From the NCBI GenBank assembly GCA_038062935.1, contig JBBTWG010000025.1, positions 1 through 46,014 on the forward strand: a stretch of DNA of 46,014 nucleotides, read 5' to 3'. Position 1 is the first letter of the stretch, and the number at the start of each line of letters is the position of its first letter. A program made the position numbers and the translations under genes. Source of the DNA: Patescibacteria group bacterium. Its GTDB lineage: Bacteria; Patescibacteriota; Gracilibacteria; UBA1369; UBA12463. This document shows positions 1,575-35,736 of this stretch, one piece after another. The notes beneath the pieces are model-generated. The model was not told where the DNA came from. It saw only the letters and a list, made by a program, of their open reading frames with translations, and did not search any database.

Positions 1575-2309
1575 ATGGAAATGAGGCCGCCAGATGAGCC
1601 AAAACAACCACAGCTAAGAATGATTCATTCCCAAGGCAAATCTCCTGGAGCAGGGAAAGCTGCAGAATCGGGGCCAGAAAACAGGGGGGCCGAAGAGGAA
1701 GGGAGTGTCATAAGTTTGGCCAGTCAAAGATCGCCATCTCAAATAGACCAAGTGGCAGAAGAAAGGATTCAGTTCCTCGAATATCTCTACGGTGATGATT
1801 TGAGGAATATTCTCTCTCCAAAAGATTTTCTATATTTGGCAGAGAATTTGGGTCTCCAGCTACGAATTCAGGAGCTTATTGATGCTGCCCAGCGCATGAA
1901 AGATGGAGGGGGTGTGGAAAGAATGAGTATGGCAATAAATCTCCGAAGAAATGATCCAGGGCCTTTGCTAGAAGAAACGCGACAATTCGTAAGAGGGTTG
2001 CTGGCAGAAAAAAGTCCCGGAATACAAATCAATTTTACGCAAAAAGAGCCAGTGAGATTCATCGATAGAGGCTTTGTGTTGAAGCGCGATTTCAAAGGTC
2101 TCATGAGACGGATAAGAAGAGAAAGGGGTTCAAGGGAAGCAGGGGAAGAGTTTGAAGTTTTTGTACGGACAGGAGAGAGTGACAAGACAGTCAGTCCTGT
2201 CATTTTGAGAGAACTTCGCATCCTTCATGATGCGAAGGAGACCCCCGCACTCAAAACGGTTATTCAGCGGTTTTTCCGCCCTAATAGGATATTTGACGAT
2301 CAACTTTGA
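1575..2309 (+). CDS. Hypothetical protein (disordered Pro/Gly/Glu-rich N-terminus)
   Basis: A 244-aa ORF with its own promoter candidate upstream. It has no recognisable motifs. Confidence 0.55.
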   Translation: MEMRPPDEPKQPQLRMIHSQGKSPGAGKAAESGPENRGAEEEGSVISLASQRSPSQIDQVAEERIQFLEYLYGDDLRNILSPKDFLYLAENLGLQLRIQELIDAAQRMKDGGGVERMSMAINLRRNDPGPLLEETRQFVRGLLAEKSPGIQINFTQKEPVRFIDRGFVLKRDFKGLMRRIRRERGSREAGEEFEVFVRTGESDKTVSPVILRELRILHDAKETPALKTVIQRFFRPNRIFDDQL

Positions 2310-2333
2310 AAAATCAGAAAAATATGCTATAAT
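2306..2333 (+). promoter_or_regulatory. Sigma70-like promoter candidate with extended -10 (TTGAAA-16 nt-TGcTATAAT) for the giant surface-protein genes
   Basis: TTGAAA lies at 2306-2311, TG at 2325-2326 and TATAAT at 2328-2333. An A-rich leader follows up to the ATG at 2384. Confidence 0.5.
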
Positions 2334-2383: not shown

Positions 2384-5300
2384 ATGGATGTGCAAAATCC
2401 CGTTCCAACTCCGATCATAAATCCAGAAACTTCAGAGAAGAGGACGAAGATTCTAGGAATTTTTGTAGTTATCATTATTGCAGGTTTGGTGAGCTATTTT
2501 TTCTCACAATCAAGCCTTTTCCGGGGAACTTTTTTGACTCCAGGAAGTGAAGAAGAAGCTCAAGTCAAAGACACATTGAAAAGCATTGCCGACAACGCCG
2601 AGAGTGCTGAGTACGAAATGCATTATCAAAATAGTGTGGGCGATGAAAATCTCGATGGAGGGGGAAATATCGATCTCAAAATCACAGGAAAAGTAGATTT
2701 CACGGAAACTCCAGGAGTAGAAAAAAAATATCATATCGACATCACCGGAACAGGATCAGGGGTTGTAGTAAACGATACGAGTTGCCAAATTGCAAAGGTA
2801 GAATTCATGAAACCAGCAGGTTGGTATTACAAAAAAAGCACATCGACAATGCCACTGACACAAAGTTCAGGAGGTGATAATTTTGCTATAAAAGGCGAGG
2901 TTCTCTGCGGAAAAACTCCAACATTGAAAGCGATTATAGGGTTCAACGGAGGTGATCCATCAGAAAAAGAAGGCATACCTTTTGATCTGACAAAAAGTGT
3001 CGATGTTCCGGGAGTTTATGTTTTTAATCTGGAGAAAGCAAAAGAAGGTCTCAAGCAGGGATTATATAATTTCAAATTCGTATTAAGCACAGAAGGTTTT
3101 GAAACAACCAAGGAATACACGCTTGATATTCCAAAAGGCATTCCAGAAACGATGACACTGAAGTCTGTCATCACGGGACAGAACATAGAAATTACGGCAT
3201 CAAAAAATACTGATCATCCGGATGGCGAGTACACCTACGCCATCTACACATCAGCAACTCTCCCGGTCAAAACACCAGTAGAAACGCCAGCAGGAACTCT
3301 AACAAATGACAAATATACCGACACATTGGCAGACGGAAAGAGTCGGTATTACAAAGTCATCGGACTCGATAGCCAGAAAAATATTATTGCCACGAGTGAT
3401 TCGATTCTTGTACAGCCAGAAGGCACTTGCATAATTTCAAAAATAGAATATATCAATTCTCCAAATTTCGTGTACCAGAGTGCATCAACACTGCCGCTCA
3501 GTCCTCAGGAAGCCGAAAAGGCGTCAATCAAAGGAGAAGTAACATGTGATACAACAAAGGCAGCAGATCCAATCCTCAATGTGGTTGCAACATCAGCAAA
3601 GGATGGAGTGAGCCCAAAAATAAAAATTAATTTAAAAAAAGAAGCAGAAGGGAAATATTCTTTCCAGGAAAGTACGGAATCGGGGACAAAAGAAGAGCCA
3701 TTAAATCTCAATTTTATATTGAGTGCAGGAAATACAGACACAGAGCAGGCATATACATTGCATCTCAAAAAAGTCATTCCAAAAGAAATTACAACGTCTC
3801 ACTATGAAAAAACAGATGCCGGAATAAAATTGAGCTGGGCCTACAGCAGACCACTCAAGGAATTTCCAGGAAATGAAGGACTGTATAAAGTCTATAGAAG
3901 TGAAACCTCATTCAACCTGCCAGCAAAAGTCACAGGAGATTTCATAGATAAAATAGTCAGCACTGTAGTGGTAAAAGAACTCCCAAAAAACACAGAATTT
4001 GGAGAAACAACATGGACCGACACAGGGGCAACAGACAATTCAAAAAATTATCATTATTTTATCGCAGCATTTGAATACCTCAACTCGGAAAAAATAAAAC
4101 AGAGAGTCGTAGCGATATCAGATGAACTGTCAGGTACCAATAGCATAGAGCTGAGCACAGTCACAACCGAAGGAAATGTAAAACTCAGCTGGAAAGTTTC
4201 GAAAGATCCGTCTGTAGTTATAAAAAAATATACTATTTACAGGTCGACCGTACATTTGGCGCCGTTCATCAGCACTAATAAAATTGGAGAAGTATTGGCA
4301 GGGGGTAAGTTCGAATACAATGATGCCCTCGCAGAAGAAGATGTGTACTATCGTGTACTCGCCATCAATGAAGATGAGGAAAATCCTGTCATTGCAAGCA
4401 ATGAAGCTTATGTAAAATCATCACTCTTGCCAGGCACAAAAATAATTCCAAAAGAAATTACATCGTTCACAGGAACGAGAGTGGAAACCGGAGTAAATCT
4501 CCAGTGGACATATGGAAAACCAGCGGCAGAATTCCTCGGATATAAAATATATAGAAGTGAATCTCCATGGAATCTCAAAACAGAAGATATAGAAAAGTTT
4601 ATACAAGATCAGAAAGAAATAAAAAATCTTCTATCAACTGAAAAATCATGGGCAGATACAGGGGCAAGTGACAAGGAAAAAGATTATTATTACATGGTTA
4701 TTGCCTTTAATAGTAAATTCAAGCCAATTGGAATATCAGACGAACTGAAAGTAGAAAAAGGCCCATTCCCACAAACTATCGCTGCGAGCGCTACAACGAC
4801 GAAAGGAACAGTAAAAATTCAGTGGCCCGAAGATCCAGAAATAATGGCACGGACAGTCGCTTTGGATCTCACGATGATACCTGGCGGTACCATCTCTGTT
4901 TACAGCGAAAATCCTTCACAGCAGGAACAGATGGAGGTGCAGGATTATGTCCTCTACACAGCAGCATCGACACCAGTCTCAAAAGATCCAAATAAGAAAA
5001 TAGTAATAAAATGGCCAAGAGATCAAGTGCTAGATAATTATGGCGAAACATACTTTGAGCCAGTGGGGAATATTTGTAACAAATATTACGTGATATTTGC
5101 AGAAAGACCGGATGGAACAGTAGTCGCGCGTTCACCAGAAGTCGCAGCAAACTTCGGAACTTGTGCAAAACCAGTAGAAGAGCAACCTGCTCCGCAGATA
5201 TGGAAATATGAAATCCACAAATCGGCCATATCACCAGTTTCAGTAACAGGCGATCCTTGGGTCATAATAGATACCGGTTCATTGCCGATGTACTTGGATA

Positions 5301-8300
5301 CAGTCCCGAGTGGAGAAAAAGCATACTATCGCATAGTCGTGGTCGACCAAAACGAAAACATCATTACCACGAGCAACGAGATGGCCGCTGAAAATGCAAT
5401 AGCGATGTCTTTCGTCGACAGTCTCTACGCCAGCATTCTCGGTGCCAACACACTGCCACAACCAGAGAAATACACAGAAACAATAACCGGGTCAGGCGAC
5501 ATCGATGTGGCCAATCCAAAAGGTCCCTCTGGAACACTCGTGATCGACGACACATACAGAGTCACCACGAATGATGCAGTCGAATCGGTCATCATGACAG
5601 CAAAAATAGTCTTCTCACTCGACTCTGAGAACCAGAAAAAAACAGATATAACAGTCACAAGAACCGAAAGTAATGACAGTGATGGAAATACAATCAGCGA
5701 AGAAAGCAAAAAGAAATTGTCATTCGTGACAGAAGGATATGTGAAGCAGAAACTGCTCAAAGATCTGAAGATTTTGGACAATATAAAAGAGCATCAGGAG
5801 TTCATCGAGAGTGGCATCGCAAAAGGAGGCATCCAGAAAAGAATCAAAAATGATGATTTTACCAAGGGCGATGGCCTCACAACAGGTCTGGAAATCAGAG
5901 GAGAGAGCGATCTTTCTGATGAAGAAAAGGCAGAAGGAATCACGAAAGTTTTAGAAACCCAGGATCTCAAGAGATTCTTCGGAGGTGATGGAGCCACAGG
6001 AAAACTCACCATCGCTCTCAACGAAAAAGAAGAAAAGGCAAAGTTCGAAGGAGCATTGTCATTCGTCGAAAAACAGAAGATCACTTTCAAAGTCCAGAAT
6101 TTCGTGTGGAAAGCCGGCACACATTGGAATGTGACGAACATTCAGAGCCTCGCCGAAGCACTCCAGAATACATCCAAGGCCGAAATGGCATACTACTCAT
6201 CATGGATCGGCATTAAGAATGAAAACGTTGGGCGAGCGCTGAGAGTAAAAGTAGACAGTGGAATAGTCGATCTCATCGGCGATGGAAAAGATCTCGAACA
6301 TAATCTCATATTCGAGGGGCATGGCGAATATGTTCTTCCAGATGCCGCTTCAGTGCTCGTGCCAGAAGTGATTGATCTCAAAGTAGAAAAAATAAGCGAT
6401 ACGGCGACAGATAAAACAGTCAAAGTAACCTGGAATATAGTTGACTCAGAAATCGCAAAAAAAGCAAAAAGCTTCTATCTCTACCGATCAACGCAAAAAC
6501 CAGTATATACATCAGAGGAACCGATTTTCAAAACAGACAGTCTTGTATCAAACACGCACACACAGAAGCTCCCCAATACAGGAGAGAGCTATTATTATAA
6601 AGTTATCGCAAAGGATAAACTCATAGGAGAGGCCGGTGCGTCAGCCATTGCCACATCATCGGAGTTTCTCAAGTCAGGAGTGAGCAAGGCTATTGCATTG
6701 ACATGGGAGGAAGAAGAATCTGAAAAGATTGATGTTTATAACATTTACCAATCCTCAAAGAGCGATGTTGAAATGGACGAGGATCATTTTTTGGATATCG
6801 TAGACGTAAATGCATCAAATTCAGGTTCAGGGATCAAAAAATTCAAGTACATTGTAGAGTACATAGCTGAGGATCAGGAAATTCCAAAAAAATATTACAA
6901 GATTCAGGCCATAGGAAAAAAAGATGGGAAAACGATGAAGACATTTTCACTTTTAGCAAATGAAACAAAGACCGTGGAAGAATCTTTCAGCGGCGGTGGA
7001 AAATTGACACAAGCAGACACAGGCCTCACAGGAAAATTGACTCTTGCCCGTTCTTTCCAGGAATACAGCCAGGAAAAAACCAAAGGGGAGCCCGTCACAT
7101 CTACATTGCAATTGCCAATAGCCAACAACACTTTCGAATATCAATTCGACCCGATGAGTCCACCGGTTCCAGCGAACCCGGATTTGTCATGGATAAGTCA
7201 AAATTACCTGAAGAAAACTCTCGACGAGCTTCATACAGATAAAATTTTGCAGAGATACATTCAGAAAGAAAACAGCATATATGGTCTCATGAAAAAAGCG
7301 ATCAAAGAATCTCTCGTACAAAAAGGCCTTGCAGGAAAACTGAAGAAAACTCAAAAGGAACACAAATATACGACAACACTAGAAAATCTCTTCGGTGCAA
7401 TTCCTCCAGGTTTTGAATTCCTGAAGGGCAGCGAGCAGGATGCCATAGCCACAAACACGGTACAATTCACCGTCGATCCTATCAAGAAACAGTTAGAAAA
7501 AATCGAAGTGGTACTGGCATACAAAGAAGGAAATCAACTTTCTTTCATCATGACGAACTTCGTGATGCCAGAAGTGATTCCAGCTTGTCCAGACGGAAAA
7601 TACAAAACAGCAGGCATGACGGGTTGCGTAGACGTTCCAGCATTCCCAACTCCAGCAAACAAAACAGCATGCGATCAGTACGCAGCAATTGTCGCATCAC
7701 CAGATGCAAATCTGAGTCCAAAAACAAAAACAGACATGCAGGAAAAATTAAAAGATCCAATCTGCGTCGAAATAATTGGATCTCTAGATCTCCAGCTCGA
7801 TACCAAAGGCGACAGAGTCATAAAAATCAAATGGGTAGATATCCCAGGAACAAGCCCTGCAAGCAGTTATCTGGTGTACCGTTTTGAAGGAGCAGTATTC
7901 GATTTCGCAAAAGCTCAATCAGTCGCACAGCCAAAAGAAAAAACAGATTTCACTGAAACGATGCCGCTCGTGAACGGAAAAACATACCAGTACATGGTGA
8001 CTGCTATCGATGCCGAAAACAAAGTATTGAGATTCTCAAATGTACTCCCTATTCCACTCCCAGGCATCATTCTGACCAACACCGTGGTCGACAAAGAGGT
8101 GAAACTCGCCTGGACCGACACCACCGCAGGCATCGATAAATATAAAATTTTCAGATCCGAAGACATCGCTTCAAAAGGAACCGAGGTTGTAGCACTCGGA
8201 AAAGATGCAAAAACACACAACGATACACCGGCCAACCCAGCAAGCGGAAAAACATATTACTATAGTGTTGTTGGAACAGATATCGCTGGAATCGAAATGG

Positions 8301-9523
8301 CTCTTTCAAACCAGATTTCTGCAGCACCAGTAGCAATAGTCGTAGACTGCCCAACGATGATGCTCGATCTGAAAGCCAAAAAAACAGCATTCGACAAGTC
8401 ACCAACCGCCGAAAACGCAAAAGCATACAACGATGCATATGCGCTATTCATTGCAAAACCTTGTACAGCCACACCAGGTGTTACCCTTCCAACGTCGCTC
8501 ATCGCTCCAGTAGTAAATACATTCACACTCTCAGGAGTCGCTGCAGAAGGCGGTAACGTCAACCTCAGCTGGGAAGACACGAAATATGACCCTGCAAACA
8601 TTTATTACATCTATCGCGGCACGGACGCATTGACCTACAAAGAAGGCGACAATATGTTAGGAATTCCAGAAGTCACGAACGTCCAGGGGAAAACCAATCA
8701 ACAGACAGTCCCAACCGTGAACAAAGATTATTACTATGTCATGGCACTTCTCGACGCCAACAAAAAGATTATCAGAATTTCAAACAACATCAGTATCAAA
8801 ATCAATTACACGCCACCGGACAACGGAAGTGTCAATCTGCCAGTGGGAGGCGGTGGTATATCAACAGCAGAAATTCTCGCACTCCTGAAAGCAAAACAGG
8901 ATGCAGAAGCTTTCCAATTTAAGATTCAGCAATTCCCACAATTCCACAACGTCGGACCTTCACCATTCGTCGATCTCGTCCCTCAAATGTACGGATACGA
9001 CGCTATTATGCGTCTCTCACAGGCTGGAGTGATCGAAGGCTACAAGAAGCAGGGAAAATTCTTTTTCGAACCACAAAAACCGGTGAATCGTGCAGAAGCA
9101 GCGAAGCTCGTGCTCGCCGCCGCCTGCGTTGACGTCAGTGAAGCAGCAAAAAGACCACCAAAGATTTTCAAAGATGTAGAGCCATCACTCTGGTTCTTCA
9201 AATACACAAAAGAGGCTTATTTCCAGGGATATTTCAGTGGATACAAAAATAAAGTAGGCCCACCAACATTCAAGGCATCGAGCAAGATCACCCGCGCAGA
9301 ACTCGTCAAAGTATTAGTGCAAGTGCTCCGCAGAGGAGGTGTTATCAACGTTCCATCGATCCAGCAGACAGCACCATGGTGGATTCCGTTCATGCAGATC
9401 GGACTTCAGGTGCAACTCACCACAACAGAGGAGGCTATGTATCCAACAGAACCCCTCACCCGCGCGCAGACCGCAGTCATGGTCGACCGTGTGAAACAAA
9501 TCTATAATGGCTGTCAAAAATAA
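2384..9523 (+). CDS. Giant cell-surface protein: N-terminal signal anchor, at least 10 FN3-like repeats, three C-terminal SLH domains (putative S-layer or envelope protein)
   Basis: It is 2379 aa with a TM helix ILGIFVVIIIAGLVSYFF. Repeat signatures recur throughout: Y.[IV]YRS... followed by ..YYY.V.A.D (YKVYRSETS, YTIYRST, YKIYRSES, YLYRSTQ, YKIFRSED, YYIYRGTD; KDYYYMVIAF, ESYYYKVIAKD, KTYYYSVVGTD, KDYYYVMALLD). The C-terminus has SLH-type motifs: FVDLVPQMYGYDAIMRLSQAGVIEGY...PVNRAEAAKLV, FKDV...ITRAELVKVL and ...LTRAQTAVMVDRV. Confidence 0.9.
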   Translation: MDVQNPVPTPIINPETSEKRTKILGIFVVIIIAGLVSYFFSQSSLFRGTFLTPGSEEEAQVKDTLKSIADNAESAEYEMHYQNSVGDENLDGGGNIDLKITGKVDFTETPGVEKKYHIDITGTGSGVVVNDTSCQIAKVEFMKPAGWYYKKSTSTMPLTQSSGGDNFAIKGEVLCGKTPTLKAIIGFNGGDPSEKEGIPFDLTKSVDVPGVYVFNLEKAKEGLKQGLYNFKFVLSTEGFETTKEYTLDIPKGIPETMTLKSVITGQNIEITASKNTDHPDGEYTYAIYTSATLPVKTPVETPAGTLTNDKYTDTLADGKSRYYKVIGLDSQKNIIATSDSILVQPEGTCIISKIEYINSPNFVYQSASTLPLSPQEAEKASIKGEVTCDTTKAADPILNVVATSAKDGVSPKIKINLKKEAEGKYSFQESTESGTKEEPLNLNFILSAGNTDTEQAYTLHLKKVIPKEITTSHYEKTDAGIKLSWAYSRPLKEFPGNEGLYKVYRSETSFNLPAKVTGDFIDKIVSTVVVKELPKNTEFGETTWTDTGATDNSKNYHYFIAAFEYLNSEKIKQRVVAISDELSGTNSIELSTVTTEGNVKLSWKVSKDPSVVIKKYTIYRSTVHLAPFISTNKIGEVLAGGKFEYNDALAEEDVYYRVLAINEDEENPVIASNEAYVKSSLLPGTKIIPKEITSFTGTRVETGVNLQWTYGKPAAEFLGYKIYRSESPWNLKTEDIEKFIQDQKEIKNLLSTEKSWADTGASDKEKDYYYMVIAFNSKFKPIGISDELKVEKGPFPQTIAASATTTKGTVKIQWPEDPEIMARTVALDLTMIPGGTISVYSENPSQQEQMEVQDYVLYTAASTPVSKDPNKKIVIKWPRDQVLDNYGETYFEPVGNICNKYYVIFAERPDGTVVARSPEVAANFGTCAKPVEEQPAPQIWKYEIHKSAISPVSVTGDPWVIIDTGSLPMYLDTVPSGEKAYYRIVVVDQNENIITTSNEMAAENAIAMSFVDSLYASILGANTLPQPEKYTETITGSGDIDVANPKGPSGTLVIDDTYRVTTNDAVESVIMTAKIVFSLDSENQKKTDITVTRTESNDSDGNTISEESKKKLSFVTEGYVKQKLLKDLKILDNIKEHQEFIESGIAKGGIQKRIKNDDFTKGDGLTTGLEIRGESDLSDEEKAEGITKVLETQDLKRFFGGDGATGKLTIALNEKEEKAKFEGALSFVEKQKITFKVQNFVWKAGTHWNVTNIQSLAEALQNTSKAEMAYYSSWIGIKNENVGRALRVKVDSGIVDLIGDGKDLEHNLIFEGHGEYVLPDAASVLVPEVIDLKVEKISDTATDKTVKVTWNIVDSEIAKKAKSFYLYRSTQKPVYTSEEPIFKTDSLVSNTHTQKLPNTGESYYYKVIAKDKLIGEAGASAIATSSEFLKSGVSKAIALTWEEEESEKIDVYNIYQSSKSDVEMDEDHFLDIVDVNASNSGSGIKKFKYIVEYIAEDQEIPKKYYKIQAIGKKDGKTMKTFSLLANETKTVEESFSGGGKLTQADTGLTGKLTLARSFQEYSQEKTKGEPVTSTLQLPIANNTFEYQFDPMSPPVPANPDLSWISQNYLKKTLDELHTDKILQRYIQKENSIYGLMKKAIKESLVQKGLAGKLKKTQKEHKYTTTLENLFGAIPPGFEFLKGSEQDAIATNTVQFTVDPIKKQLEKIEVVLAYKEGNQLSFIMTNFVMPEVIPACPDGKYKTAGMTGCVDVPAFPTPANKTACDQYAAIVASPDANLSPKTKTDMQEKLKDPICVEIIGSLDLQLDTKGDRVIKIKWVDIPGTSPASSYLVYRFEGAVFDFAKAQSVAQPKEKTDFTETMPLVNGKTYQYMVTAIDAENKVLRFSNVLPIPLPGIILTNTVVDKEVKLAWTDTTAGIDKYKIFRSEDIASKGTEVVALGKDAKTHNDTPANPASGKTYYYSVVGTDIAGIEMALSNQISAAPVAIVVDCPTMMLDLKAKKTAFDKSPTAENAKAYNDAYALFIAKPCTATPGVTLPTSLIAPVVNTFTLSGVAAEGGNVNLSWEDTKYDPANIYYIYRGTDALTYKEGDNMLGIPEVTNVQGKTNQQTVPTVNKDYYYVMALLDANKKIIRISNNISIKINYTPPDNGSVNLPVGGGGISTAEILALLKAKQDAEAFQFKIQQFPQFHNVGPSPFVDLVPQMYGYDAIMRLSQAGVIEGYKKQGKFFFEPQKPVNRAEAAKLVLAAACVDVSEAAKRPPKIFKDVEPSLWFFKYTKEAYFQGYFSGYKNKVGPPTFKASSKITRAELVKVLVQVLRRGGVINVPSIQQTAPWWIPFMQIGLQVQLTTTEEAMYPTEPLTRAQTAVMVDRVKQIYNGCQK
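8966..9497 (+). other. Three tandem S-layer-homology (SLH) domains at the C-terminus of the 2379-aa protein
   Basis: The pattern F.D[VL]....... is followed by G.[IF].GY and then [IV].RAE...[LM] (ending RAQ in the third copy), repeated three times. Confidence 0.8.
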
Positions 9524-9558
9524 AAATAAAATTTTTAACAAATAACAAAAATTTATTT

Positions 9559-12500
9559 ATGGAAAATCTCAACAGCGTCCCAGCCCAGACATCTCCAACT
9601 CCAGCCCCAGCACCGAGTGCACCACCTTCCCCAGAGGGCGACCTCAAAAGGAAAAAAATGCTCGTCGGACTCTTCCTGGTGATTTTCGCCGGAGCAGTCG
9701 CCTATTTCTTCTCCAGCTCAGACATGTTCCGAGGAGCATTTCTCGCAGGACAGGAGAAGGAAGTTTTTCAGCAGGCCATGACAGACCTCTCAAAAACTGA
9801 TGGTGCCGATTATGAGGCGACATACAAGAATAAGATTGTTGTCGGAGATCAAACGCGAAATGTTGAGATAGCAGCAACAGGGAAACTGAATTTCGCTGGA
9901 ACCGAAGGAGCCCAGCACACGATCAAATTCACAGGAACAGGAAGCACAAAAGATCCAACGAGTTCAGAAAATACATTATTGCTCAGCGCCAAATTGGGCG
10001 AGTCTTTTCCAGAAGATGGGGAACAATTAGTGGATATTACCTGGGGAGATCTCGAGATGGAAGCAGAATTCGATCACACATATAAACTCTATAAATCAAC
10101 AAAAGAAAGTGACCTGAGTGATGCGGGAAATCTGGCAGGAAGCAATACCTATTTCAACAATTCATTTGGTGCCACAGTCCCAAAAAAATATACAGATCTC
10201 CTCACATCAAGCGGAACATATTTTTATAGAATGTTGAAAGTATCGAAGACAGAGCAAACGCAAGTTTTGAAAACTTCAAAGACCGTCAGTGTCACGCATT
10301 CTACAACGCCAAAACCAGCTGAAAGTGTCGTCATTAAATATCTCTACACAGATGACAAAGGCATTAATCTCACGTGGTTCGATCCAAATCCAAGCACTGG
10401 TAAAAGATACGAAGTATACAGAATTCGAACCGTGGGCGCAAACCCTCTGATCGATGGAGCGCCAATCAGTTCAGTAACAATAACAGCAGAAACGCAAAGT
10501 CAGCAGGGAGCAACATATGCAGATACCAACGCAAAAATTGGAGAAGAATATTATTATTTCGTCAGAAAAATTGGAGCCAACGACATAGTTCTTATCCAAT
10601 CACCAGATTCAGCGCATGTGACATGGAGTGGCGAGGCAGACATTGATATTGAAAACATCGATGGATTCGGTCTCAAGGTTGCATTTCAGTCTCCAAATAC
10701 AACAACATTTTATCCAGTATCGATTACACTCGAACCAACATTCGAGGTGGATAGCTACAAATTATTCAAAAATACATTCGTCGATGGAGTAAAGATAGGA
10801 AAAACAGAACTGGAAAAAACTATTCCAGCTTCTGCAGACGGAAAAACTCTCATAAACATGGGAGAAGGTATCGATCCAGGAACCTATCAATGGATCATCG
10901 TCGGGATGAAAAATGGAAAAGGAGTAGCAAAATTTGAGGACGAGGTCAGAACTTTGCCACATGTTCCAGACGCAGGACCTTCGCCAGAATTTTTCACAGC
11001 GACCGGCAATGTGGAAGGAGCAAAAATCACTCTTAATTGGAAAGATGACGCAACGACTATTCCAGCAAAAGACTGGGCATATTACATCCATGAAGGACCA
11101 ACAGAATCTGCGGCATTGAAAAAAACATTTGTCGGTCAAAATCTTGGTACTAGTTGGAATGCATCGCCAGGGACATACTTTTTTTTCATCGTCAAAAAAA
11201 CATTGGATGATAATGTCATGGTCGCCCAATCACAACTCATCAAGCTAGAAGTGCTAGCCCCAGAGCCAATGATTTTGAGCGGAACAATGAATCCCGGAGT
11301 GGGCATTACTTTAACTTTCAGCGATCCAGCACAATCGGAAAACGACCAGTATATTATGTACAAAACATTATCTCCGGGTGCAGTGAAAAACACAACAAGT
11401 TTGGTGGCAGCAGAAGAATACATTTTACAGCAGTTGGCTCCCGGCACATGGGATTATAACAATGCTAATTTTCCTGAAGAACATCAGTTTAAAAATGGTG
11501 TGACATATTACTTTGTTGTAGGGAAATACATCACAGGAGCCGCAGAATTTATTTCTGTATCAAACGAATTTTCTATTACCTATGAGGATGCACCACCAGT
11601 CGCCTTCCTCCCAACATCAAAATCGTTCGCTTCGATGCTCATGGCTGACGTATTGCCTCCAGCGGGAGAGAAATCCCCATACGAAGAAACGATCTCCGGC
11701 GGCGGAACACTCACAGAAACAAAAGGTGGACTCCAGGGAACATTAACTCTTGCTGATCGCTACGAGGTACTTGGCACGGAATACACCCAATCCATCATCA
11801 TGCAAATAAAAAACGGAAAAATAGAATCCGTAGTAGGAAATTTAGGGAGTCTGGAAAATAACAATGAGCCAGCACTCCAGTTCATCACTCAAGATTTCCT
11901 GGAAAAGGGCTACGAACAATATTTCAAGATCAACGCATTCCTCGAAGCATATCAGAAAGATTTGAACGCTCTCAGGGATGGAATCCAAAATGCCGCAACA
12001 AACACAGCATTGGCAGACGCGACATCCAAGAATGATGGCGGATATGAGTCGACAGTCGATGCATTCACAACAAAAATGGCATCATACCCAGAAAATGCAG
12101 CCGACAAGAAAATTATCTTTCTCACAGACAAAAATAAAATCACAGCCATCGAAGCAACTCTCAAGTTCGGAGAAGGAAAAACATCTTTATTTTTCATCAA
12201 TAATCTCCACGCCGGAACAGGTGCACCAGCAGGGAACCCACCAGTAAACCCACCAGCAGGCGGCGGAGGCGGCAGTAGCGGCCCAAGCGTCACCGGCGGC
12301 GGAAGCGGCCCATCCACGCTCGACATTCTTGCCCTCAAAAAAGCAAAAGAAGATGCCGAGAAGCTCAAGAGTCAGGTAAATATAACCCCGGTAGTAGAGC
12401 AACTCTCTCCATTCGTCGACGTCACTCCAGGGACATACGGTTTCAGCGCTATCGTACGTCTGTCGAAGAACGGCCTCATCGAAGGGTATCCACAAAAAAA

Positions 12501-13026
12501 TGGAACTATCCTTTTTAAGCCAGGGAAATCAGTCATTCGCGCAGAAATGTCAAAAATGATTTTGGGCAGTATCTGTATGGAGCCAAGCGATGTCGCAAAA
12601 AAGCCACCACAAATTTACGGCGACGTACAGCCAGGAACATGGTTCTTCCCATACACAAAACAGGCATACATCAAAGGATATTTCACCGGATACAAAGGTG
12701 AGAGAAACGCAGCCGGCCAGGAAATAAAATTATTCCGCCCAGGAAACACCATCACTCAGGCCGAAGTCATCAAGCCATTGATCGAAATCCTCCGAAGAGA
12801 AGGATTCCTCGATCTCAAAGGCATGAAGACGGAGAATCCATGGTACCTCCCCTACATGAGAGTTGCCAAAGACCTGGAACGATTCTGGCAGGACAAAGAA
12901 AATCCACCAGAAGTCACTTCACTGCTCAGCGAAGATGAAGAAAATCCAGGAAAACCAATGACTCGTGGAGAAGCAGCCGTCTTCATCGACCGCATGTTGA
13001 GTATCTACGGATCCTGCAGAGAATAA
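9559..13026 (+). CDS. Giant cell-surface protein, paralog of the upstream gene (signal anchor, FN3-like repeats, 3 SLH domains)
   Basis: It is 1155 aa with the same architecture. The anchor is MLVGLFLVIFAGAVAYFFSSSDMFRGAFL (upstream gene: ILGIFVVIIIAGLVSYFFSQSSLFRGTFL). A shared internal block is SGGGTLTETKGGLQGTLTLADRY (upstream: SGGGKLTQADTGLTGKLTLARSF). The SLH motifs are FVDVTPGTYGFSAIVRLSKNGLIEGY...VIRAEMSKMI, YGDV...ITQAEVIKPL and ...MTRGEAAVFIDRM. The C-terminal endings are similar (IYGSCRE versus IYNGCQK). Confidence 0.9.
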   Translation: MENLNSVPAQTSPTPAPAPSAPPSPEGDLKRKKMLVGLFLVIFAGAVAYFFSSSDMFRGAFLAGQEKEVFQQAMTDLSKTDGADYEATYKNKIVVGDQTRNVEIAATGKLNFAGTEGAQHTIKFTGTGSTKDPTSSENTLLLSAKLGESFPEDGEQLVDITWGDLEMEAEFDHTYKLYKSTKESDLSDAGNLAGSNTYFNNSFGATVPKKYTDLLTSSGTYFYRMLKVSKTEQTQVLKTSKTVSVTHSTTPKPAESVVIKYLYTDDKGINLTWFDPNPSTGKRYEVYRIRTVGANPLIDGAPISSVTITAETQSQQGATYADTNAKIGEEYYYFVRKIGANDIVLIQSPDSAHVTWSGEADIDIENIDGFGLKVAFQSPNTTTFYPVSITLEPTFEVDSYKLFKNTFVDGVKIGKTELEKTIPASADGKTLINMGEGIDPGTYQWIIVGMKNGKGVAKFEDEVRTLPHVPDAGPSPEFFTATGNVEGAKITLNWKDDATTIPAKDWAYYIHEGPTESAALKKTFVGQNLGTSWNASPGTYFFFIVKKTLDDNVMVAQSQLIKLEVLAPEPMILSGTMNPGVGITLTFSDPAQSENDQYIMYKTLSPGAVKNTTSLVAAEEYILQQLAPGTWDYNNANFPEEHQFKNGVTYYFVVGKYITGAAEFISVSNEFSITYEDAPPVAFLPTSKSFASMLMADVLPPAGEKSPYEETISGGGTLTETKGGLQGTLTLADRYEVLGTEYTQSIIMQIKNGKIESVVGNLGSLENNNEPALQFITQDFLEKGYEQYFKINAFLEAYQKDLNALRDGIQNAATNTALADATSKNDGGYESTVDAFTTKMASYPENAADKKIIFLTDKNKITAIEATLKFGEGKTSLFFINNLHAGTGAPAGNPPVNPPAGGGGGSSGPSVTGGGSGPSTLDILALKKAKEDAEKLKSQVNITPVVEQLSPFVDVTPGTYGFSAIVRLSKNGLIEGYPQKNGTILFKPGKSVIRAEMSKMILGSICMEPSDVAKKPPQIYGDVQPGTWFFPYTKQAYIKGYFTGYKGERNAAGQEIKLFRPGNTITQAEVIKPLIEILRREGFLDLKGMKTENPWYLPYMRVAKDLERFWQDKENPPEVTSLLSEDEENPGKPMTRGEAAVFIDRMLSIYGSCRE
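12412..12999 (+). other. Three tandem SLH domains at the C-terminus of the 1155-aa protein
   Basis: Same motif pattern as 8966-9497. Even the DNA at the first motif (ccattcgtcga) is shared. Confidence 0.8.
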
Positions 13027-13029: not shown

Positions 13030-13842
13030 CTATCGCCACTTCCAGAAATATTTCGTCGCACTCTGAATGTGCAGCCAAAAAACTTTCCGGAAGAGAAGAT
13101 GCAAAAAATTTCCCCCACTCAGGCGCTTGTGATAATGATTCACGAGCGCTTTTGGGAAATAGATGACTTTGTAGCCAGCCTTGCGAATCTCTTTGCACAG
13201 ATCGAAATCTTCCATAAACAGAAAATATCGATCATCAAAACCGCCGACTTCTTCGTACACTTTGCGCGGAATCAACATCGCAGCGCCTGTCACGAGCTCC
13301 ACTTCCTGCGTCGAATCGTGGTGAAAATCACCCATCAGATAGCGCTGTAAACGTCGTCTTCCCCACGAAGTTTCTGAAAGAAAAGTGCGCTTAATCACGA
13401 GATCCCAAAACCCCATATCACGTCGACACGACTCCTGGACGCGTCCATCCGCATACACAAGTTTCGGAGCCAGGATGCCAATTTCTGGATGCTGTTCGAT
13501 GTAGTCCATCAAGATTTGCAGCGTATCTTCTTGTACCGTCGTATCCGGGTTCAGAATGAAAAAATAGTCACCCGTCGCGTGGCGTACACCGAGATTGTTC
13601 CCACCCGCAAATCCCAGATTCCGGTGACTGCGAAAAAGTTGAATGCGCTTTTCCTGTGCAGCACGTTCGAGGAAGCCGAGACTGATAGGATCGGTCGACC
13701 CATTATCTACAAAAATAATTTCAAAATCAAAATCAGTTACACTTTTTTCGAGAGCCTCCACCGAAAGTTTCGGAAAATGCTTGTGGTTGAAATTGACGGT
13801 AATGACAGAAAGTTTCACCACGAAAGTATAGGGAAAAATCAC
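13030..13842 (-). CDS. Family 2 glycosyltransferase (GT-A fold)
   Basis: VITVNFNHKHFPKLSVEALEKS..DFEIIFVDNGSTD, ..RNLGFAGGNNLG.. and ..GAAMLIPRKVYEEVGGFDDRYFLFMEDFDLC are classic GT2 motifs. Confidence 0.85.
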   Translation of the reverse strand: MIFPYTFVVKLSVITVNFNHKHFPKLSVEALEKSVTDFDFEIIFVDNGSTDPISLGFLERAAQEKRIQLFRSHRNLGFAGGNNLGVRHATGDYFFILNPDTTVQEDTLQILMDYIEQHPEIGILAPKLVYADGRVQESCRRDMGFWDLVIKRTFLSETSWGRRRLQRYLMGDFHHDSTQEVELVTGAAMLIPRKVYEEVGGFDDRYFLFMEDFDLCKEIRKAGYKVIYFPKALVNHYHKRLSGGNFLHLLFRKVFWLHIQSATKYFWKWR

Positions 13843-13849: not shown

Positions 13850-15202
13850 TCAACTTTTTCTGAGCTTCTCCATCATTTTCTCGCGAGCGCTCAGGTCCAT
13901 CTTTGTGCGATTTTCACGCTTCTCCAAAGTCCATTTTCCGTACACAAACTGTCGATCTCCGATGTCTTCGCCAATGCACAAACCCGAAGCAACAAAAGAG
14001 TTATTCCCAATTTTCACGCCCGGCATAATGCTGGTATTCACGCCAATCCGCACACCCTCCGCAATCATTGCGCCGAGTTTATTCGTGCCGCTCTCAATTT
14101 TCTCTACGCCATGTGCTCCCGCAATCTGCACCGAAATCGGCGCTTCATCCAGCCGCAAATTCGCTACCACCGCGCCAGAACCAAAAGACACATTCGACGC
14201 AATCACGCTGTCGCCAATGTAATTCGTATGTGTCCACACATGCGACGCGAGATAACTCCGCACAATCTCCGTAGAAAAACCCACAACCGAACCTTCACCA
14301 ATGTGTGAATCACGCACCAAAGCATTATTCGCCACCACCGCATTTTTTCCGATATACGCCGGACCCTGAATCACCGCATGATCGAAAACTCGCACGCCGT
14401 CCTCGAGAATCACATCGCCGCGGAGAATCGCAGTTTCCGCAATCTGCGCGCCAGCGCCATGCAGCCTGTTTCCCGCGCCTTCCATTCCGCCGCCAGCCGC
14501 CTTTCGCAAAACCATCTCCCGCGCAAAAAGCATTTTCCACACCGCAATCAAATGCCAAGGAAATTTCACCGCCTGCCAAGCCCCCGTGTATACACACGCA
14601 CGAATCTCCACGCCCGCAGAAATCATCGCATCCAGAGCCACTTCATAACGATCATCGCGCCCAGTCTTCGCATTCTTGAGCGCCTCGAAAAGCCTCCCCG
14701 GTTCGCGGTGGAGATGCGCCACAATGTTCACGAGATCACTCGGCTCTTTCCCGGCACCCGGTTTTTCAAGAATTTTTTCGACCAATCCATCGGACGAAAT
14801 TTTCAAATATCCGCCAGGAAAATAAGACGTCACTTTTTTTGCCAGCAGCGCACTCATTTTCTCTGCGAGAAGCGATGTATAGGCGCTATCCTCGATCACA
14901 TCATTGCTACTCACCACCAGAAAAGGCTCATCACCAATCAAATCCTCCACACTGAGTACCGCACCCGCCATTCCATCTTCCAGTTTTTTCTGCTCAACAA
15001 CGCTCACCATCGACCCGAAAACTTTTCCCAATTCCTCGAGATTATGTCGCCCACCCACCACGATCACATCTTCAAAACCGCATCGTCGCAACTGCTCCAC
15101 TTGATGCACGATGAGCGGCTTCCCCAGCATCGGCAAGAAATTTTTATCCGGCAACGGCGCCATGCGTTTACTCTGTCCCGCAGCAAGAATAATGGCTTTC
15201 AT
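13850..15202 (-). CDS. Bifunctional GlmU-like protein: sugar-1-phosphate nucleotidyltransferase plus left-handed beta-helix (hexapeptide) acyltransferase
   Basis: The N-terminus MKAIILAAGQSKRM...LPMLGKPLI is the NTP-transferase signature. The C-terminal half is made of hexapeptide repeats (IGKNAVVANNALVRDSHIGEGSVVG...VRIGVNTSIMPGVKIGNNSFV). The sugar specificity cannot be read from the sequence. Confidence 0.8.
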   Translation of the reverse strand: MKAIILAAGQSKRMAPLPDKNFLPMLGKPLIVHQVEQLRRCGFEDVIVVGGRHNLEELGKVFGSMVSVVEQKKLEDGMAGAVLSVEDLIGDEPFLVVSSNDVIEDSAYTSLLAEKMSALLAKKVTSYFPGGYLKISSDGLVEKILEKPGAGKEPSDLVNIVAHLHREPGRLFEALKNAKTGRDDRYEVALDAMISAGVEIRACVYTGAWQAVKFPWHLIAVWKMLFAREMVLRKAAGGGMEGAGNRLHGAGAQIAETAILRGDVILEDGVRVFDHAVIQGPAYIGKNAVVANNALVRDSHIGEGSVVGFSTEIVRSYLASHVWTHTNYIGDSVIASNVSFGSGAVVANLRLDEAPISVQIAGAHGVEKIESGTNKLGAMIAEGVRIGVNTSIMPGVKIGNNSFVASGLCIGEDIGDRQFVYGKWTLEKRENRTKMDLSAREKMMEKLRKS

Positions 15203-16182
15203 GCGACCATTGTAGCAGGCATTCGATATTTCTGCACGACACGGTCGATTTCATACTTTGGATGCTCCATGTCTGGCTCCATCAAAACTTTCCAAAATTC
15301 CGGCGCCTGATCTTCATGTGCAATCAAACTTGTATGCGCAATCCGCTCATGCGGCTCACAGAGCGGAACAATGGTATCGGGATTATGTTCGCGCCGCAGC
15401 GAAAACCGCTCCGTATGGTGCCAAATATCCGCTGGTTTATTGCAATTCGGAAACCCGCAAACACCTTTATATTTTTCCTGGATTTTCCGACGAATTTCAG
15501 CAGGAATATGCCGTGTCACGCATTCGGATTTTTGCGAAGATTTCCCGGGAACCCTCGCCGAAACCGGCTTTTTCTGCGCCTCCGCCAGTTTCAAAAATTC
15601 CTCCATCACTTCTCCGAGAGTCAGAGGTCTCCTGAATTTCTTCTCAAGCTGTTGCTGAAAAACACGAATTCGCGCCGCCGTTCTGCGGCTTACGGAAAAG
15701 GACAGAGTTTCGCGATCAGATACTGTCGATGAATTTTCAGCTTTATTTTCCCAGCCGGCTGGGAATTCAGCTTCAGAGTTGACTTTTTGTAACTTGAGTT
15801 CATGAACATACGTTTGAAGTGCCGATTTCGGCATCATCACGACTTTTTCAAGCCACATATCTTCATTTTCGGGTCGCACAAGAGAAGACACCACCTGCAG
15901 TTTCGACCACCCAACCTCACCAGACTGCAATTTTTCCTGAAGTTTCGGGGTTTCTTTCAAGTGCTCATTTACACGTAAAACTTCTTCCACGGTCTCACGG
16001 CTTACTCCAGCCAGCCGCGCAGCAAATTCGTAGACCGAATGCATGCCATATTTTCGATATAATTTTCGCCGTTCCACCTCCGGCAACATACCCAAGAATT
16101 GATTCCGATACTTCAAAATCAGCGTGCCAATTTCACGACAACGCTCATACATTTGGCAATCAGAAAAAGTTGAAAAATCCAT
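15199..16182 (-). CDS. HNH endonuclease-domain protein
   Basis: The C-terminal segment CGFPNCNKPADIWHHTERFSLRREHNPDTIVPLCEPHERIAH is an HNH/zinc-finger nuclease motif. Its stop overlaps the GlmU-like start (ATGA at 15199-15202). Confidence 0.75.
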   Translation of the reverse strand: MDFSTFSDCQMYERCREIGTLILKYRNQFLGMLPEVERRKLYRKYGMHSVYEFAARLAGVSRETVEEVLRVNEHLKETPKLQEKLQSGEVGWSKLQVVSSLVRPENEDMWLEKVVMMPKSALQTYVHELKLQKVNSEAEFPAGWENKAENSSTVSDRETLSFSVSRRTAARIRVFQQQLEKKFRRPLTLGEVMEEFLKLAEAQKKPVSARVPGKSSQKSECVTRHIPAEIRRKIQEKYKGVCGFPNCNKPADIWHHTERFSLRREHNPDTIVPLCEPHERIAHTSLIAHEDQAPEFWKVLMEPDMEHPKYEIDRVVQKYRMPATMVA

Positions 16183-16258: not shown

Positions 16259-17383
16259 TTACGTAAGAATGGAACGCAACTTTCCAGCCATCTCCGCCTC
16301 CGAAATTTCCTTCGCAATCCGTTCCCCATAACTCATCGAATCACCCCAAAGATAGCCGCTATACGGCGTAAAAGCGGTCCCCGGCGAACCTGGAATGCGC
16401 ATGCTCACATCGAACACAAAGAAATTTTCACGGCCATCATCTGTGTTAACCGCTCCCTGCAAGGCAAAAGGTCCAATCATTCCGGGTGGAACCTGGAGCT
16501 TCATAGTATTCACGAAATCTTCTCCAGCTCTAAAAAATTTTTCCAACAGTGATTCTTTCACCGTCACCGCGATGTGCCCCGTTTCGATACGAATTGCCTT
16601 CTGATGAGAAGCCGGGATGAGAGCCTGTTCCCATGCAGGAAGTCGTAGAATGCCATCTAGATTTGTTTGTCGTCGCATATCTGTTCCCATAATTTCCAAT
16701 TCACTGTTCATGACAGAGTAGAAATAATTCACATTCACCTGCGCTCCTAAAATATATTCTTCGATAGTTGCACTCTCCAAATCTCGACGATCAATTTCAC
16801 CAGCCTGGATGCGTCGTTCCGATTCAGCAACGTATTCATTATAATTGCTCGCAATAAAAAACGCGCGCTCATATTTCCGCGTCGCTTCATTCACTTTCAC
16901 AATCACCAGTCGATCAATATCACGCGGACTGGCAAAAATCTTCGGCATCCGAATCCCAGCCCGAGCCAAAATTTCATACTGATTTCCCGGCACATTTCTC
17001 TCCTCCAATTTCACCGCTTCACGAGTCCCATACATCGGCACCAGAAAATCATTTTCAATCTTTTCAAAATCGCAATACACCCAAAAATATCGATTGTGCA
17101 CGAAAATTACATTCTTCGCCCGTAACTGTTCCTGCAACCCCACGATATCCCCAAATTTTTCCACCACCAAAACTTCATCCACACATCCACGACCATCACG
17201 AGTCGCATAATACTGCGAATACGTCTTCTCGCGCCCTTTCTGCGCCACAACCAAAGTCCGAAACCCATATTTCTTCGCTCCCCGACACACATCCAGAGCA
17301 CTATGCCCCCCGAGGACCCCGATCGTTAATTTCGAAAGATCATACTTGGAAAGGACTTCGGCGAGCTGTTTTTGGGAGATCAT
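16259..17383 (-). CDS. purP: 5-formaminoimidazole-4-carboxamide ribonucleotide (FAICAR) synthetase, archaeal type (PurP), paralog 1
   Basis: MISQKQLAEVLSKYDLSKLTIGVLGGHSALDVCRGAKKYGFRTLVV...HNRYFWVY...PPGMIGPFALQ... matches the PurP ATP-grasp family layout. I placed the start at the internal ATG 17383 (family-typical MIS... N-terminus), not at the ORF-track ATG 17434, which would overlap the upstream gene. Confidence 0.85.
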   Translation of the reverse strand: MISQKQLAEVLSKYDLSKLTIGVLGGHSALDVCRGAKKYGFRTLVVAQKGREKTYSQYYATRDGRGCVDEVLVVEKFGDIVGLQEQLRAKNVIFVHNRYFWVYCDFEKIENDFLVPMYGTREAVKLEERNVPGNQYEILARAGIRMPKIFASPRDIDRLVIVKVNEATRKYERAFFIASNYNEYVAESERRIQAGEIDRRDLESATIEEYILGAQVNVNYFYSVMNSELEIMGTDMRRQTNLDGILRLPAWEQALIPASHQKAIRIETGHIAVTVKESLLEKFFRAGEDFVNTMKLQVPPGMIGPFALQGAVNTDDGRENFFVFDVSMRIPGSPGTAFTPYSGYLWGDSMSYGERIAKEISEAEMAGKLRSILT

Positions 17384-17405
17384 GGCGAGAGTATAGCAGA
17401 AAACC

Positions 17406-19870: not shown

Positions 19871-19910
19871 AATCAAAAAAGTCAGAAGAATAAGCGTCTT
19901 CAGTATAATG

Positions 19911-23353: not shown

Positions 23354-24058
23354 ATGGAAAATCAAAAGAAACTGATCATCGGTCTCATCGCACTCGTAGT
23401 CGTCGGCGCAGGAGTCTATTTCGTCTCAGCGAGTAATCTCAAAGGCGATTTCTTTGACCGTCGTACCGGGAGAGCTATTGAAAAAGCGCCAGTAGAAGAA
23501 CAAAAAGTAATAACTGGCACAAGCAAAACAGCAAAAGATCTTTCATCAATAGTGAAAAATGCCCAAGAGGTTAATCCAACACCAATAGGGTGTATTATGG
23601 GGACAATATTTGCAGGTACAAAAGAGATAGGAAGTAATCAGCAGGCAGGATTTATAGAAAAACAGGAATACCCATTCCAAAATCTTGTCAGCGAAATTAA
23701 AGATGGAGGGAAGAATAATTGTGTTTATATGCTGAGAATTGTGGTTCATGATAAAGAAAGTTCTACCGTTGAAAAAATAGCGTATGAAGCAAATAGAATG
23801 GTATTCAAAGGCTTTGAAGCAACAGTAAAAGATGATGGACAGAGCATTGAAGTGATAGATCCAGCGTCAGGTCATGAGATTTTTATAAAAAAAATCAAAG
23901 AAAATGGCCAAGAAAAGATTAGAGTACGGCAAGTATTCATAGATCACGGTGGAAGGAATATCTTCACTATTTGGAATGGCTTGAACTCTGCAGCAGGAAC
24001 GCTACAAGAAAAACTCACTGTTGTTGTTACGGGCGTGGGCACTTACAACGTGCCATAG
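23354..24058 (+). CDS. Hypothetical membrane-anchored exported protein
   Basis: The internal ATG gives MENQKKLIIGLIALVVVGAGVYFVSASNLKGDFF, an anchor motif shared with the two giant SLH proteins. The rest has no recognisable family. Confidence 0.6.
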   Translation: MENQKKLIIGLIALVVVGAGVYFVSASNLKGDFFDRRTGRAIEKAPVEEQKVITGTSKTAKDLSSIVKNAQEVNPTPIGCIMGTIFAGTKEIGSNQQAGFIEKQEYPFQNLVSEIKDGGKNNCVYMLRIVVHDKESSTVEKIAYEANRMVFKGFEATVKDDGQSIEVIDPASGHEIFIKKIKENGQEKIRVRQVFIDHGGRNIFTIWNGLNSAAGTLQEKLTVVVTGVGTYNVP

Positions 24059-35724: not shown

Positions 35725-35736
35725 AAAAAACAAAAA

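Follow-up and report, generated by a model that had tools for sequence, protein, structure and literature searches.

The contig JBBTWG010000025.1, a stretch of 46,014 nucleotides (nt) referred to here as the window, carries two neighboring genes on the same strand, A and B, which together span 10.6 kb and encode what we read as large modular surface proteins predicted to dock on the cell wall through C-terminal S-layer homology (SLH) domains. Our analysis covered this one 46-kb contig of the source genome. The source organism is an uncultured Peribacteria bacterium (Peregrinibacteria, candidate phyla radiation, CPR) from Hainich groundwater, and the locus, with A and B unchanged, is also found on a 35.5-kb contig (ENA ERZ1292633) from the 0.2-um fraction of Hainich groundwater well H41. 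The two genes, with the lengths of their products in amino acids (aa) and their isoelectric points (pI), are as follows.

2384..9523, + strand: gene A, a modular envelope protein of 2379 aa, 262 kDa, pI 5.3
9559..13026, + strand: gene B, a protein of 1155 aa, 126 kDa, pI 5.0

The first-pass annotation, made from the DNA letters, had described adjacent paralogs of 2379 and 1155 aa occupying 10.6 kb, and this description is borne out: the open reading frames (ORFs) are exact, and BLASTP relates the proteins in their N-terminal, SGGG, and C-terminal regions, with 38% identity over the N-terminal 109 aa (E = 4e-14) and 40% over the C-terminal 239 aa (E = 1e-53). Common to both are an N-terminal leader and domain, repeats of ~95 aa that resemble fibronectin type III (FN3) domains, an SGGG-LTLA module, and the C-terminal SLH triplet. 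The near-identical ending IY.GC.. that had been claimed for the pair does not hold, as the two endings are merely similar (QIYNGCQK in A, SIYGSCRE in B) and the pattern fits A only. Cysteines are even in number in each protein (14 in A and 2 in B), with spacings suggestive of pairs; together with a single N-terminal hydrophobic segment after a basic cluster, they indicate that A and B are extracytoplasmic. Since the intergenic gap is 35 nt and harbors no terminator-like site, the two genes are probably cotranscribed.

The prediction of wall docking comes from the C termini, where the following features are found.

8957..9520, + strand: SLH triplet of A (aa 2192-2379), motifs NRAE, TRAE, and TRAQ, conserved C2248/C2377
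12235..12393, + strand: Gly/Pro-rich linker and conserved short helix of B (STLDILALKKAKEDAE), with low-complexity 12- and 18-nt repeats at 12224-12309
12403..13023, + strand: SLH triplet of B (aa 949-1155), motifs IRAE, TQAE, and TRGE, conserved C1006/C1153

A stretch of Gly residues and a conserved helix (STAEILALLKAKQDAE) lie ahead of the A triplet. The Pfam profile PF00395 exceeds its gathering score (20.8 bits) in both proteins, reaching 40.8 bits in A and 35.9 bits in B, so that the profile check proposed in the first-pass annotation supports SLH. When the repeats are scored singly, A SLH1 (33.1 bits), A SLH2 (22.5 bits), and B SLH1 (27.4 bits) pass this cut-off; B SLH2 (15.3 bits) and B SLH3 (12.2 bits) do not, and A SLH3 is undetected. 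A TRAE-type motif is nevertheless present in all three repeats of both A and B, and the arginines of the SLH1 and SLH3 motifs (positions 53 and 195 of the B C-terminal fragment) are invariant across our SLH alignment A2. Also invariant in this alignment are a cysteine after SLH1 and another near the C terminus (A 2248/2377; B 1006/1153), a pattern that fits 52 of the 99 top homologs. We infer that this pair forms a disulfide stapling the triplet.

A structural model points in the same direction. AlphaFold2 was run on B 941-1155 with a 30-sequence alignment obtained from a word-indexed search with the SLH-domain alignment, whose matches are all short (<400 aa), generic SLH proteins. The model has a predicted local distance difference test score (pLDDT) of 88.3 and a predicted TM-score (pTM) of 0.83, and all 15 of its significant Foldseek matches in the PDB are three-SLH modules of Sap or SpaA (probability 1.0, target TM-score 0.72-0.78, 189-207 aligned columns), the first match beyond these having E = 0.16. 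Several of the matched structures were crystallized with 4,6-pyruvylated N-acetylmannosamine (ManNAc) ligands. A search of PDB sequences with the SLH domain profile likewise retrieved Sap (E = 1.2e-11). The three C-terminal SLH domains announced by the first-pass annotation are thus upheld in both proteins, by PF00395 above threshold and by a predicted fold, modeled on B, corresponding to a full Sap/SpaA-like triplet. As judged from sequence and model, the C terminus of A and B is a genuine three-SLH wall-binding module, with wall binding itself predicted, and profile, fold, and TRAE motifs place the two proteins in the class of SLH-anchored surface proteins.

Between the two ends, A and B are built largely as a ladder of repeats.

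3149..3427, + strand: FN3-like repeat of A (aa 256-348), not a seed of the repeat model, E = 6e-7
3788..4771, + strand: three FN3-like repeats of A (aa 469-796), from motif spacing and the repeat model
4907..5404, + strand: two degenerate FN3-like repeats of A, aa 842-927 (not significant) and aa 930-1007 (E = 4e-4)
6383..6973, + strand: two FN3-like repeats of A (aa 1334-1530), from the repeat model
7784..8332, + strand: two FN3-like repeats of A (aa 1801-1983), with Cys linkers on both sides (C1735/1748/1763/1794 and C1989/2027)
8519..8818, + strand: last FN3-like repeat of A (aa 2046-2145), from the repeat model
9994..10638, + strand: two FN3-like repeats of B (aa 146-360), from motif spacing and the repeat model
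10714-10956, + strand: candidate fifth FN3-like repeat of B (aa 386-466), insignificant in the repeat model
10987..11598, + strand: two FN3-like repeats of B (aa 477-680), from the repeat model

The ladder with its Y.[IV]YRS and YYY.V signature, already noticed in the first pass, is confirmed in both proteins by regular spacing, the motifs recurring every ~95 aa, and by a repeat hidden Markov model (HMM) seeded on 12 repeats (8 from A and 4 from B). In A, this HMM detects non-seed repeats at 263-344 (E = 6e-7) and 942-1002 (E = 4e-4), while candidates at A 847-920 and B 396-462 fall short of significance, giving 8 clear and 3 weak repeats in A and 4 clear and 1 weak in B. It also finds 8 repeats, down to E = 3e-13, in an independent relative of 2129 aa (P0002, described below), and it matches the second gene of that relative's locus. 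Pairwise identity among the repeats is 13-29%, and when A and B are each compared with themselves by BLAST, no internal match reaches E < 0.01, the divergence being too great for pairwise detection. Since, in addition, Tandem Repeats Finder finds no long tandem repeats at the DNA level, the ladder is old and did not arise by recent amplification. A profile of 14 repeats run against PDB sequences matches the Clostridium thermocellum "Fn3-like protein" 3mpc (E = 1.2e-4) and the FN3 module of 5g56 (E = 1.6e-3), followed by the FnIII domain of chitinase A1 (1k85, E = 0.015), neogenin (0.03), and titin (0.5); the motifs that align with FN3 structures are LtW, Y.v.Rs, YtDt, and YYY.V.A. Moreover, one homologous repeat encoded by the second gene of the relative's locus does pass the Pfam fn3 model (26.6 bits, cut-off 25). 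At the profile level, it is reasonable to call the repeats of A and B FN3-like.

Three further modules are inserted in or precede this chain.

2513..2767, + strand: N-terminal juxtamembrane domain of A (aa 44-128), common to B and P0002
2768..3157, + strand: Cys-pair module 1 of A (aa 129-258; C134/C175), ~125 aa
3410..3787, + strand: Cys-pair module 2 of A (aa 343-468; C349/C388)
5426..6163, + strand: SGGG-LTLA module of A, copy 1 (aa 1015-1260), a TGSGDI...GTLVI variant
6926..7603, + strand: SGGG-LTLA module of A, copy 2 (aa 1515-1740), from BLASTP and the module model
11626..12258, + strand: SGGG-LTLA module of B (aa 690-900), from BLASTP and the module model

The internal block SGGG.LT...LTLA that the first-pass annotation regarded as common to the pair is indeed present in both, as a module of ~210 aa that A contains twice and B once. 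In BLASTP, A 1525-1734 and B 702-891 share 25% identity (E = 4e-8) and a second, weaker copy appears at A 981-1164; a model made from B and P0002 alone recovers both A copies (E = 2.9e-11). AlphaFold on the three-row alignment of this module yielded a mean pLDDT of 32, unusable for fold assignment. The Cys-pair module (~125 aa) is present in two copies each in A and P0002; we considered that it might be FN3-like, but hhalign shows no relation to the FN3-like profile. The juxtamembrane N-terminal domain measures ~80 aa, with a faint second copy at A 1245-1317. None of the three modules has a match in Pfam or NCBIfam.

The family to which A and B belong is very rare. An exhaustive HMMER scan with B, covering 1.84 billion representative proteins, yielded 1188 matches at E <= 1e-3, of which we considered the best 150; among these, P0002 (222 bits) is the only one to match outside the SLH domain, and the others align solely to B 943-1151. 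The best of these SLH-only matches are proteins of 4000-6000 aa, the named ones being annotated as "S-layer homology domain-containing protein" and coming from Candidatus Gracilibacteria or Peregrinibacteria. A GTDB scan with an alignment of A, B, and P0002 returned a single locus (L003), on contig CAZFSD010000006.1 of an "uncultured Candidatus Peribacteria bacterium," and it is the locus that carries P0002. In JGI metagenomes, 66 further SLH loci were found, all generic SLH with 23-32% identity, and neither the N-terminal domain nor the SGGG module is present in any of them. A word-indexed homolog search with B returned B alone, a search too insensitive to recover even its paralog A, and P0002 was not among the matches when the same search was made with the SLH-domain alignment.

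The relative locus has the same gene order as the window: SDH-alpha, PurN, a small hypothetical protein, the big protein, and a second leader-bearing FN3 protein, followed on the opposite strand by GT2, GlmU-like, and PurP genes. Identity between P0002 and A is 41% within the SLH triplet and ~25-33% in the remaining parts, and their domains are arranged in a different order. At the position of B, the relative (L003 10649-12026, + strand) encodes a protein of ~460 aa comprising a leader and three FN3-like repeats and lacking SLH; the record has an N run inside this gene, so that the ORF appears split. Because identity between the two loci is 66-83% for the flanking proteins and ~25-41% for the surface proteins, the sequence comparison identifies the locus as a conserved syntenic slot with hypervariable content that evolves faster than its neighbors. 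A phage or mobile-element origin of the region was also considered, and is rejected in view of the housekeeping flanks in conserved synteny.

The N termini raise the question of whether A and B are attached at one end or at both.

2384..2512, + strand: leader of A (aa 1-43), with M-D-x-x-N, a Pro-rich n-region, KRTK, ~20 hydrophobic residues up to YFF, SQS, and LFRGTF
9559..9948, + strand: leader (aa 1-54) and N-terminal domain (aa 55-130) of B, with KRKK, hydrophobic residues 33-51, SSS, and MFRGAF

A Kyte-Doolittle scan shows a single hydrophobic stretch of ~20 residues in each protein (A 20-46, B 32-54). The leader is common to five proteins, namely, A, B, the product of a window ORF at 23354-24058, P0002, and the second gene of the relative locus (leader coordinates 4226-4400 and 10649-10830 in L003). 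Its pattern consists of M-[DE]-x-x-N, an n-region, a basic cluster, ~20 hydrophobic residues with AG.V.YF, a small-x-small triplet (SQS, SSS, AGT, TQT, and SAS in the five leaders), and [FL][KR]GxF; the n-region is Pro-rich, measures 22-36 aa, and is absent in ORF 23354-24058. This last ORF (+ strand, 234 aa), which has no Pfam or PHROG match, begins with an A/B-type leader made of M-E, a basic cluster, ~20 hydrophobic residues ending in VYFV, SAS, and LKGDFF. In the other secreted proteins of the window, the signal is an ordinary lipobox or an ASA site, and in the giant SLH proteins of the same SLH subtype it is a short, classical signal peptide. From its sequence, the shared leader resembles a signal, specific to this lineage, by which Peribacteria envelope proteins are exported or anchored.

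Taken together, we put at roughly 0.7 the probability that A and B are modular FN3-like surface proteins docked on the wall by their SLH triplets and encoded in a hypervariable slot, a figure that leaves the double anchor aside. From the N to the C terminus, each protein would comprise the leader, a small membrane-adjacent domain, the FN3-like chain with its inserted modules, a flexible Gly-rich linker, a short helix, and the three-SLH pseudotrimer. The triplet would dock the C terminus non-covalently on a pyruvylated secondary cell-wall polymer, and the FN3-like chain may serve as a spacer or stalk displaying variable, lineage-specific modules. Since the content of the slot evolves much faster than its neighbors, an exposed role at the surface is suggested, such as that of an adhesin, a scaffold targeted by phages or hosts, or a protein in contact with the host.

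Whether the leader stays in the membrane would decide how the chain is held. On the strength of its length and sequence conservation, we lean, by a narrow preference, toward its retention as a type II signal anchor, which would fix each protein at both ends and makes a double anchor, in membrane and wall, plausible. B, with 4-5 FN3 repeats and one module, could then bridge membrane and wall over ~25 nm when extended, and A, with ~11 FN3 repeats and four other modules (~60 nm), would form a loop, both lengths being estimates from typical FN3 dimensions. Conversely, the leader could be a long Gram-positive-type Sec signal peptide that is cleaved, leaving the proteins held solely by their C-terminal SLH with the FN3 chain pointing outward and tipped by the conserved N-terminal domain, the ordinary topology for C-terminal SLH anchors. 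We regard this as a tenable but somewhat doubtful alternative. A small-x-small triplet follows the hydrophobic stretch in 5/5 leaders and is a candidate signal-peptidase site, so cleavage is possible, and C-terminal SLH with outward modules is a familiar layout, as in SdbA and OlpB of C. thermocellum. The n-region of 22-36 residues and the ~20 hydrophobic residues are, however, longer than the lineage's own classical signal peptides, and the conservation of AG.V.YF inside and [KR]GxF just behind the hydrophobic segment is unusual for a disposable signal peptide. The partner protein of the relative, with the same leader and no SLH, can be read both ways: it may be retained by other means or secreted, but if it is retained by the cell, the leader segment is its sole anchor.

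Several observations weigh against the docked and doubly anchored surface proteins that we favor. The third SLH repeat is below the Pfam threshold in both A and B. The Pfam fn3 model (PF00041) has no match in A or B at E <= 1, nor in any of 14 isolated repeats at E <= 10, so that of the FN3-like label given in the first pass, the likeness to solved FN3 domains stands at the profile level (E = 1e-4), while Pfam fn3 misses every repeat. The small-x-small triplet behind every leader is compatible with cleavage by signal peptidase I. Because the second gene of the relative lacks SLH, attachment at both ends is not conserved for the pair. Finally, a survey of 15 CPR genomes concluded that the CPR have lost SLH and CsaB (bioRxiv 10.1101/2021.05.31.446380). 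At least for SLH, the Peribacteria lineage is an exception to this reported loss.

As for the ligand, no CsaB gene (PF04230) is present within the 46-kb window. In Candidatus Peribacter riflensis, a member of the same class, two "polysaccharide pyruvyl transferase CsaB" genes are annotated, along with several SLH-bearing proteins that include enzymes; the SLH-bearing wall enzymes comprise an amidase neighbor, an esterase, and a sortase-like protein (PMC4736985 supplement). Since CsaB is annotated twice and S-layer-domain enzymes are present in this organism, a pyruvylated ligand in the cell's own wall is plausible for A and B. Large, variable exported proteins and S-layer protein genes have also been reported in Peribacteria (PMC4736985). 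A literature search for precedents of a transmembrane segment combined with C-terminal SLH, or of SLH in Peregrinibacteria or Gracilibacteria, returned nothing relevant.

It was also proposed in the first pass that these proteins are the best candidates for the main surface layer of the organism, and A and/or B could indeed be true S-layer proteins that self-assemble into a paracrystalline outer lattice. Their closest structural matches, Sap and SpaA, are S-layer proteins anchored by SLH triplets, their pI values of 5.0-5.3 are acidic, a promoter-like site with 11/12 matches lies upstream of A, S-layer genes diverge fast, as does the A/B slot, and S-layer protein genes are on record for the class Peribacteria (PMC4736985). 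We nonetheless find this unlikely. Outside the SLH triplet, no similarity to a known lattice domain was found in Pfam, NCBIfam, or the comparison of the FN3-like repeat profile with the PDB, which was the comparison made with solved structures for this part and matched FN3 modules alone. A is atypical for an S-layer protein, with its 262 kDa, 14 cysteines, and long non-classical leader or probable membrane anchor, and chains of FN3 domains strung like beads typify stalks and adhesins, not lattices. The A/B family is almost absent elsewhere, both among the best 150 of the 1188 protein matches and in the 66 metagenome loci. Because many further proteins of the same lineage bear SLH, among them enzymes and giants of 4000-6000 aa, A and B are not obvious unique S-layer candidates.

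In a more exotic scheme, A and B would act in trans as episymbiont adhesins: anchored by the N terminus in the membrane of the Peribacteria cell, they would bind, through the SLH triplet at the far end, the pyruvylated wall polymer on a host cell. Peribacteria have been inferred to live as symbionts, for which the large, variable proteins that they export may provide attachment (PMC4736985), the hypervariable slot fits such a function, a probable N-terminal membrane anchor would place the SLH domains at the far end of an estimated 25-60-nm chain, and CPR are reported to lack CsaB in general (bioRxiv 10.1101/2021.05.31.446380). Against this stand the two CsaB annotations of Ca. Peribacter riflensis and the SLH domains on its housekeeping wall enzymes, which imply an own-wall ligand (PMC4736985 supplement), and we give this scheme very little credence. 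Docking of A and B on the producer's own wall remains our preferred reading.

The SLH module of A and B is the same three-SLH pseudotrimeric module as in Sap of Bacillus anthracis (3pyw, 6bt4) and SpaA of Paenibacillus alvei (6cwc-6cwr, 7sv3-7sv6), which also have TRAE-like motifs in each repeat. However, it is C-terminal in A and B and N-terminal in Sap and SpaA, identity is 20-23%, and the remainder of A and B, an FN3-like chain with novel modules and no known lattice domains, is unrelated; the conserved SLH Cys pair and the non-classical leader further set A and B apart. In sequence, the closest SLH relatives (30-40% over ~200 aa, E down to 1e-40) are giant Gracilibacteria/Peregrinibacteria proteins (HRY90744.1, QQR54753.1), which likewise belong to this part of the CPR and have the same conserved Cys pair. 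They share nothing with A and B outside the triplet, the matches covering B 943-1151. In contrast to A and B, they have classical signal peptides and continue beyond the triplet into Asp-rich, calcium-binding-like repeats.

Clostridial surface proteins such as C. thermocellum SdbA and OlpB consist of Ig/FN3/cohesin stalks with C-terminal SLH. A and B follow the same logic, a beta-sandwich chain ending in a C-terminal SLH triplet, and the nearest FN3 sequence match of their repeats is a C. thermocellum Fn3-like module (3mpc, 5g56). Unlike SdbA and OlpB, they carry no cohesins or other known functional modules, have a different leader, and belong to a CPR lineage, and no likeness in sequence was detected apart from the domain classes. 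If the leader is retained, the concept of a wall end and a membrane end would also be that of the Omp-alpha/OmpM SLH tethers of diderm Terrabacteria (Thermotoga, Negativicutes, and Deinococcus-Thermus), albeit with opposite polarity: these have N-terminal SLH and a C-terminal outer-membrane anchor or beta-barrel, whereas the N-terminal helix of A and B would be embedded in the cytoplasmic membrane of what is presumably a monoderm, with no coiled-coil rod and no porin barrel. An assignment of A and B to the OmpM/Omp-alpha tethers was considered and rejected, their SLH being C-terminal, their single hydrophobic segment N-terminal, and a porin domain not found by Pfam.

Large SLH-anchored surface proteins are well known, and large exported proteins and proteins with S-layer domains have already been reported in Peribacteria, so the class itself is not new. 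What is new is the rare family, its uncharacterized modules, the shared leader, and the hypervariable slot. Our analysis documents an intact Sap/SpaA-like SLH triplet, of a Cys-pair subtype, for Peribacteria, Peregrinibacteria, and Gracilibacteria; it defines a very rare family with one full-architecture relative (among the best 150 of 1188 matches in 1.84 billion proteins) in a conserved hypervariable slot; and it flags a conserved non-classical leader in several Peribacteria envelope proteins. If the leader is indeed a retained anchor, A and B would form a physical link between membrane and wall, or between symbiont and host, with consequences for how the envelope of ultra-small CPR cells is built and how these cells attach to partners. 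We consider it improbable, but worth stating, that membrane-retained A and B grip the wall of a host through SLH, as an attachment device of CPR episymbionts whose slot tracks host range. In a milder variant, they may be permanent staples between the membrane and the cell's own wall, a tethering principle undescribed for monoderm envelopes.

The surroundings of the two genes include the following features.

2306..2333, + strand: sigma-70-like promoter candidate (TTGAAA, 16 nt, TG-TATAAT; 11/12 matches), ~50 nt upstream of gene A
13030-13842, - strand: GT2 glycosyltransferase gene, convergent with gene B, position kept in the relative locus
13850-15202, - strand: gene for an archaeal-type GlmU-like sugar-1-P nucleotidylyltransferase/acetyltransferase (TIGR03992, 238.9 bits, below the cut-off of 292)

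The promoter candidate is the best + strand site of the region, although it is a match to the consensus only and the total count of promoter-like sites does not exceed that in shuffled sequences. The GlmU-like and GT2 genes also lie beside the surface-protein slot in the relative locus, where their products are 66% and 74% identical to those of the window, and it is possible that they make the wall polymer bound by SLH. Between the GlmU-like and PurP genes, the window has an ORF of 327 aa (15199-16182, - strand) with a weak HNH-endonuclease match (phrog_333, E = 0.004); as the GlmU-like and PurP genes are adjacent in the relative locus, this ORF is an insertion. For the neighboring ORFs without an assignment, Pfam, PHROGs, and NCBIfam gave nothing useful.

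PurP-type proteins form a mainly archaeal family. The window encodes two such paralogs (DUF1246 + DUF1297; 16259-17434 and 19911-20969, both - strand), one of which keeps its position in the relative locus, as well as a classical PurH (AICARFT/IMPCHase; 24069-25622, - strand). Two predicted lipoproteins lie between the PurP genes (17406-18182 and 18146-19951, - strand; lipoboxes LTAC and FAGC); one has a Memo-like domain, and the other, of 601 aa, has no family match. Farther along the window, four consecutive ORFs of 499, 295, 785, and 1407 aa (34225-43270, + strand) have no Pfam, PHROG, or NCBIfam match. The AT skew of this segment is unusually strong (0.35-0.40), the 1407-aa ORF includes a His/Asp/Gly/Lys-rich stretch, and the 785-aa ORF has a signal peptide and ~7 predicted hydrophobic, transmembrane-like segments. 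Possibly, the four ORFs encode an uncharacterized membrane machine.

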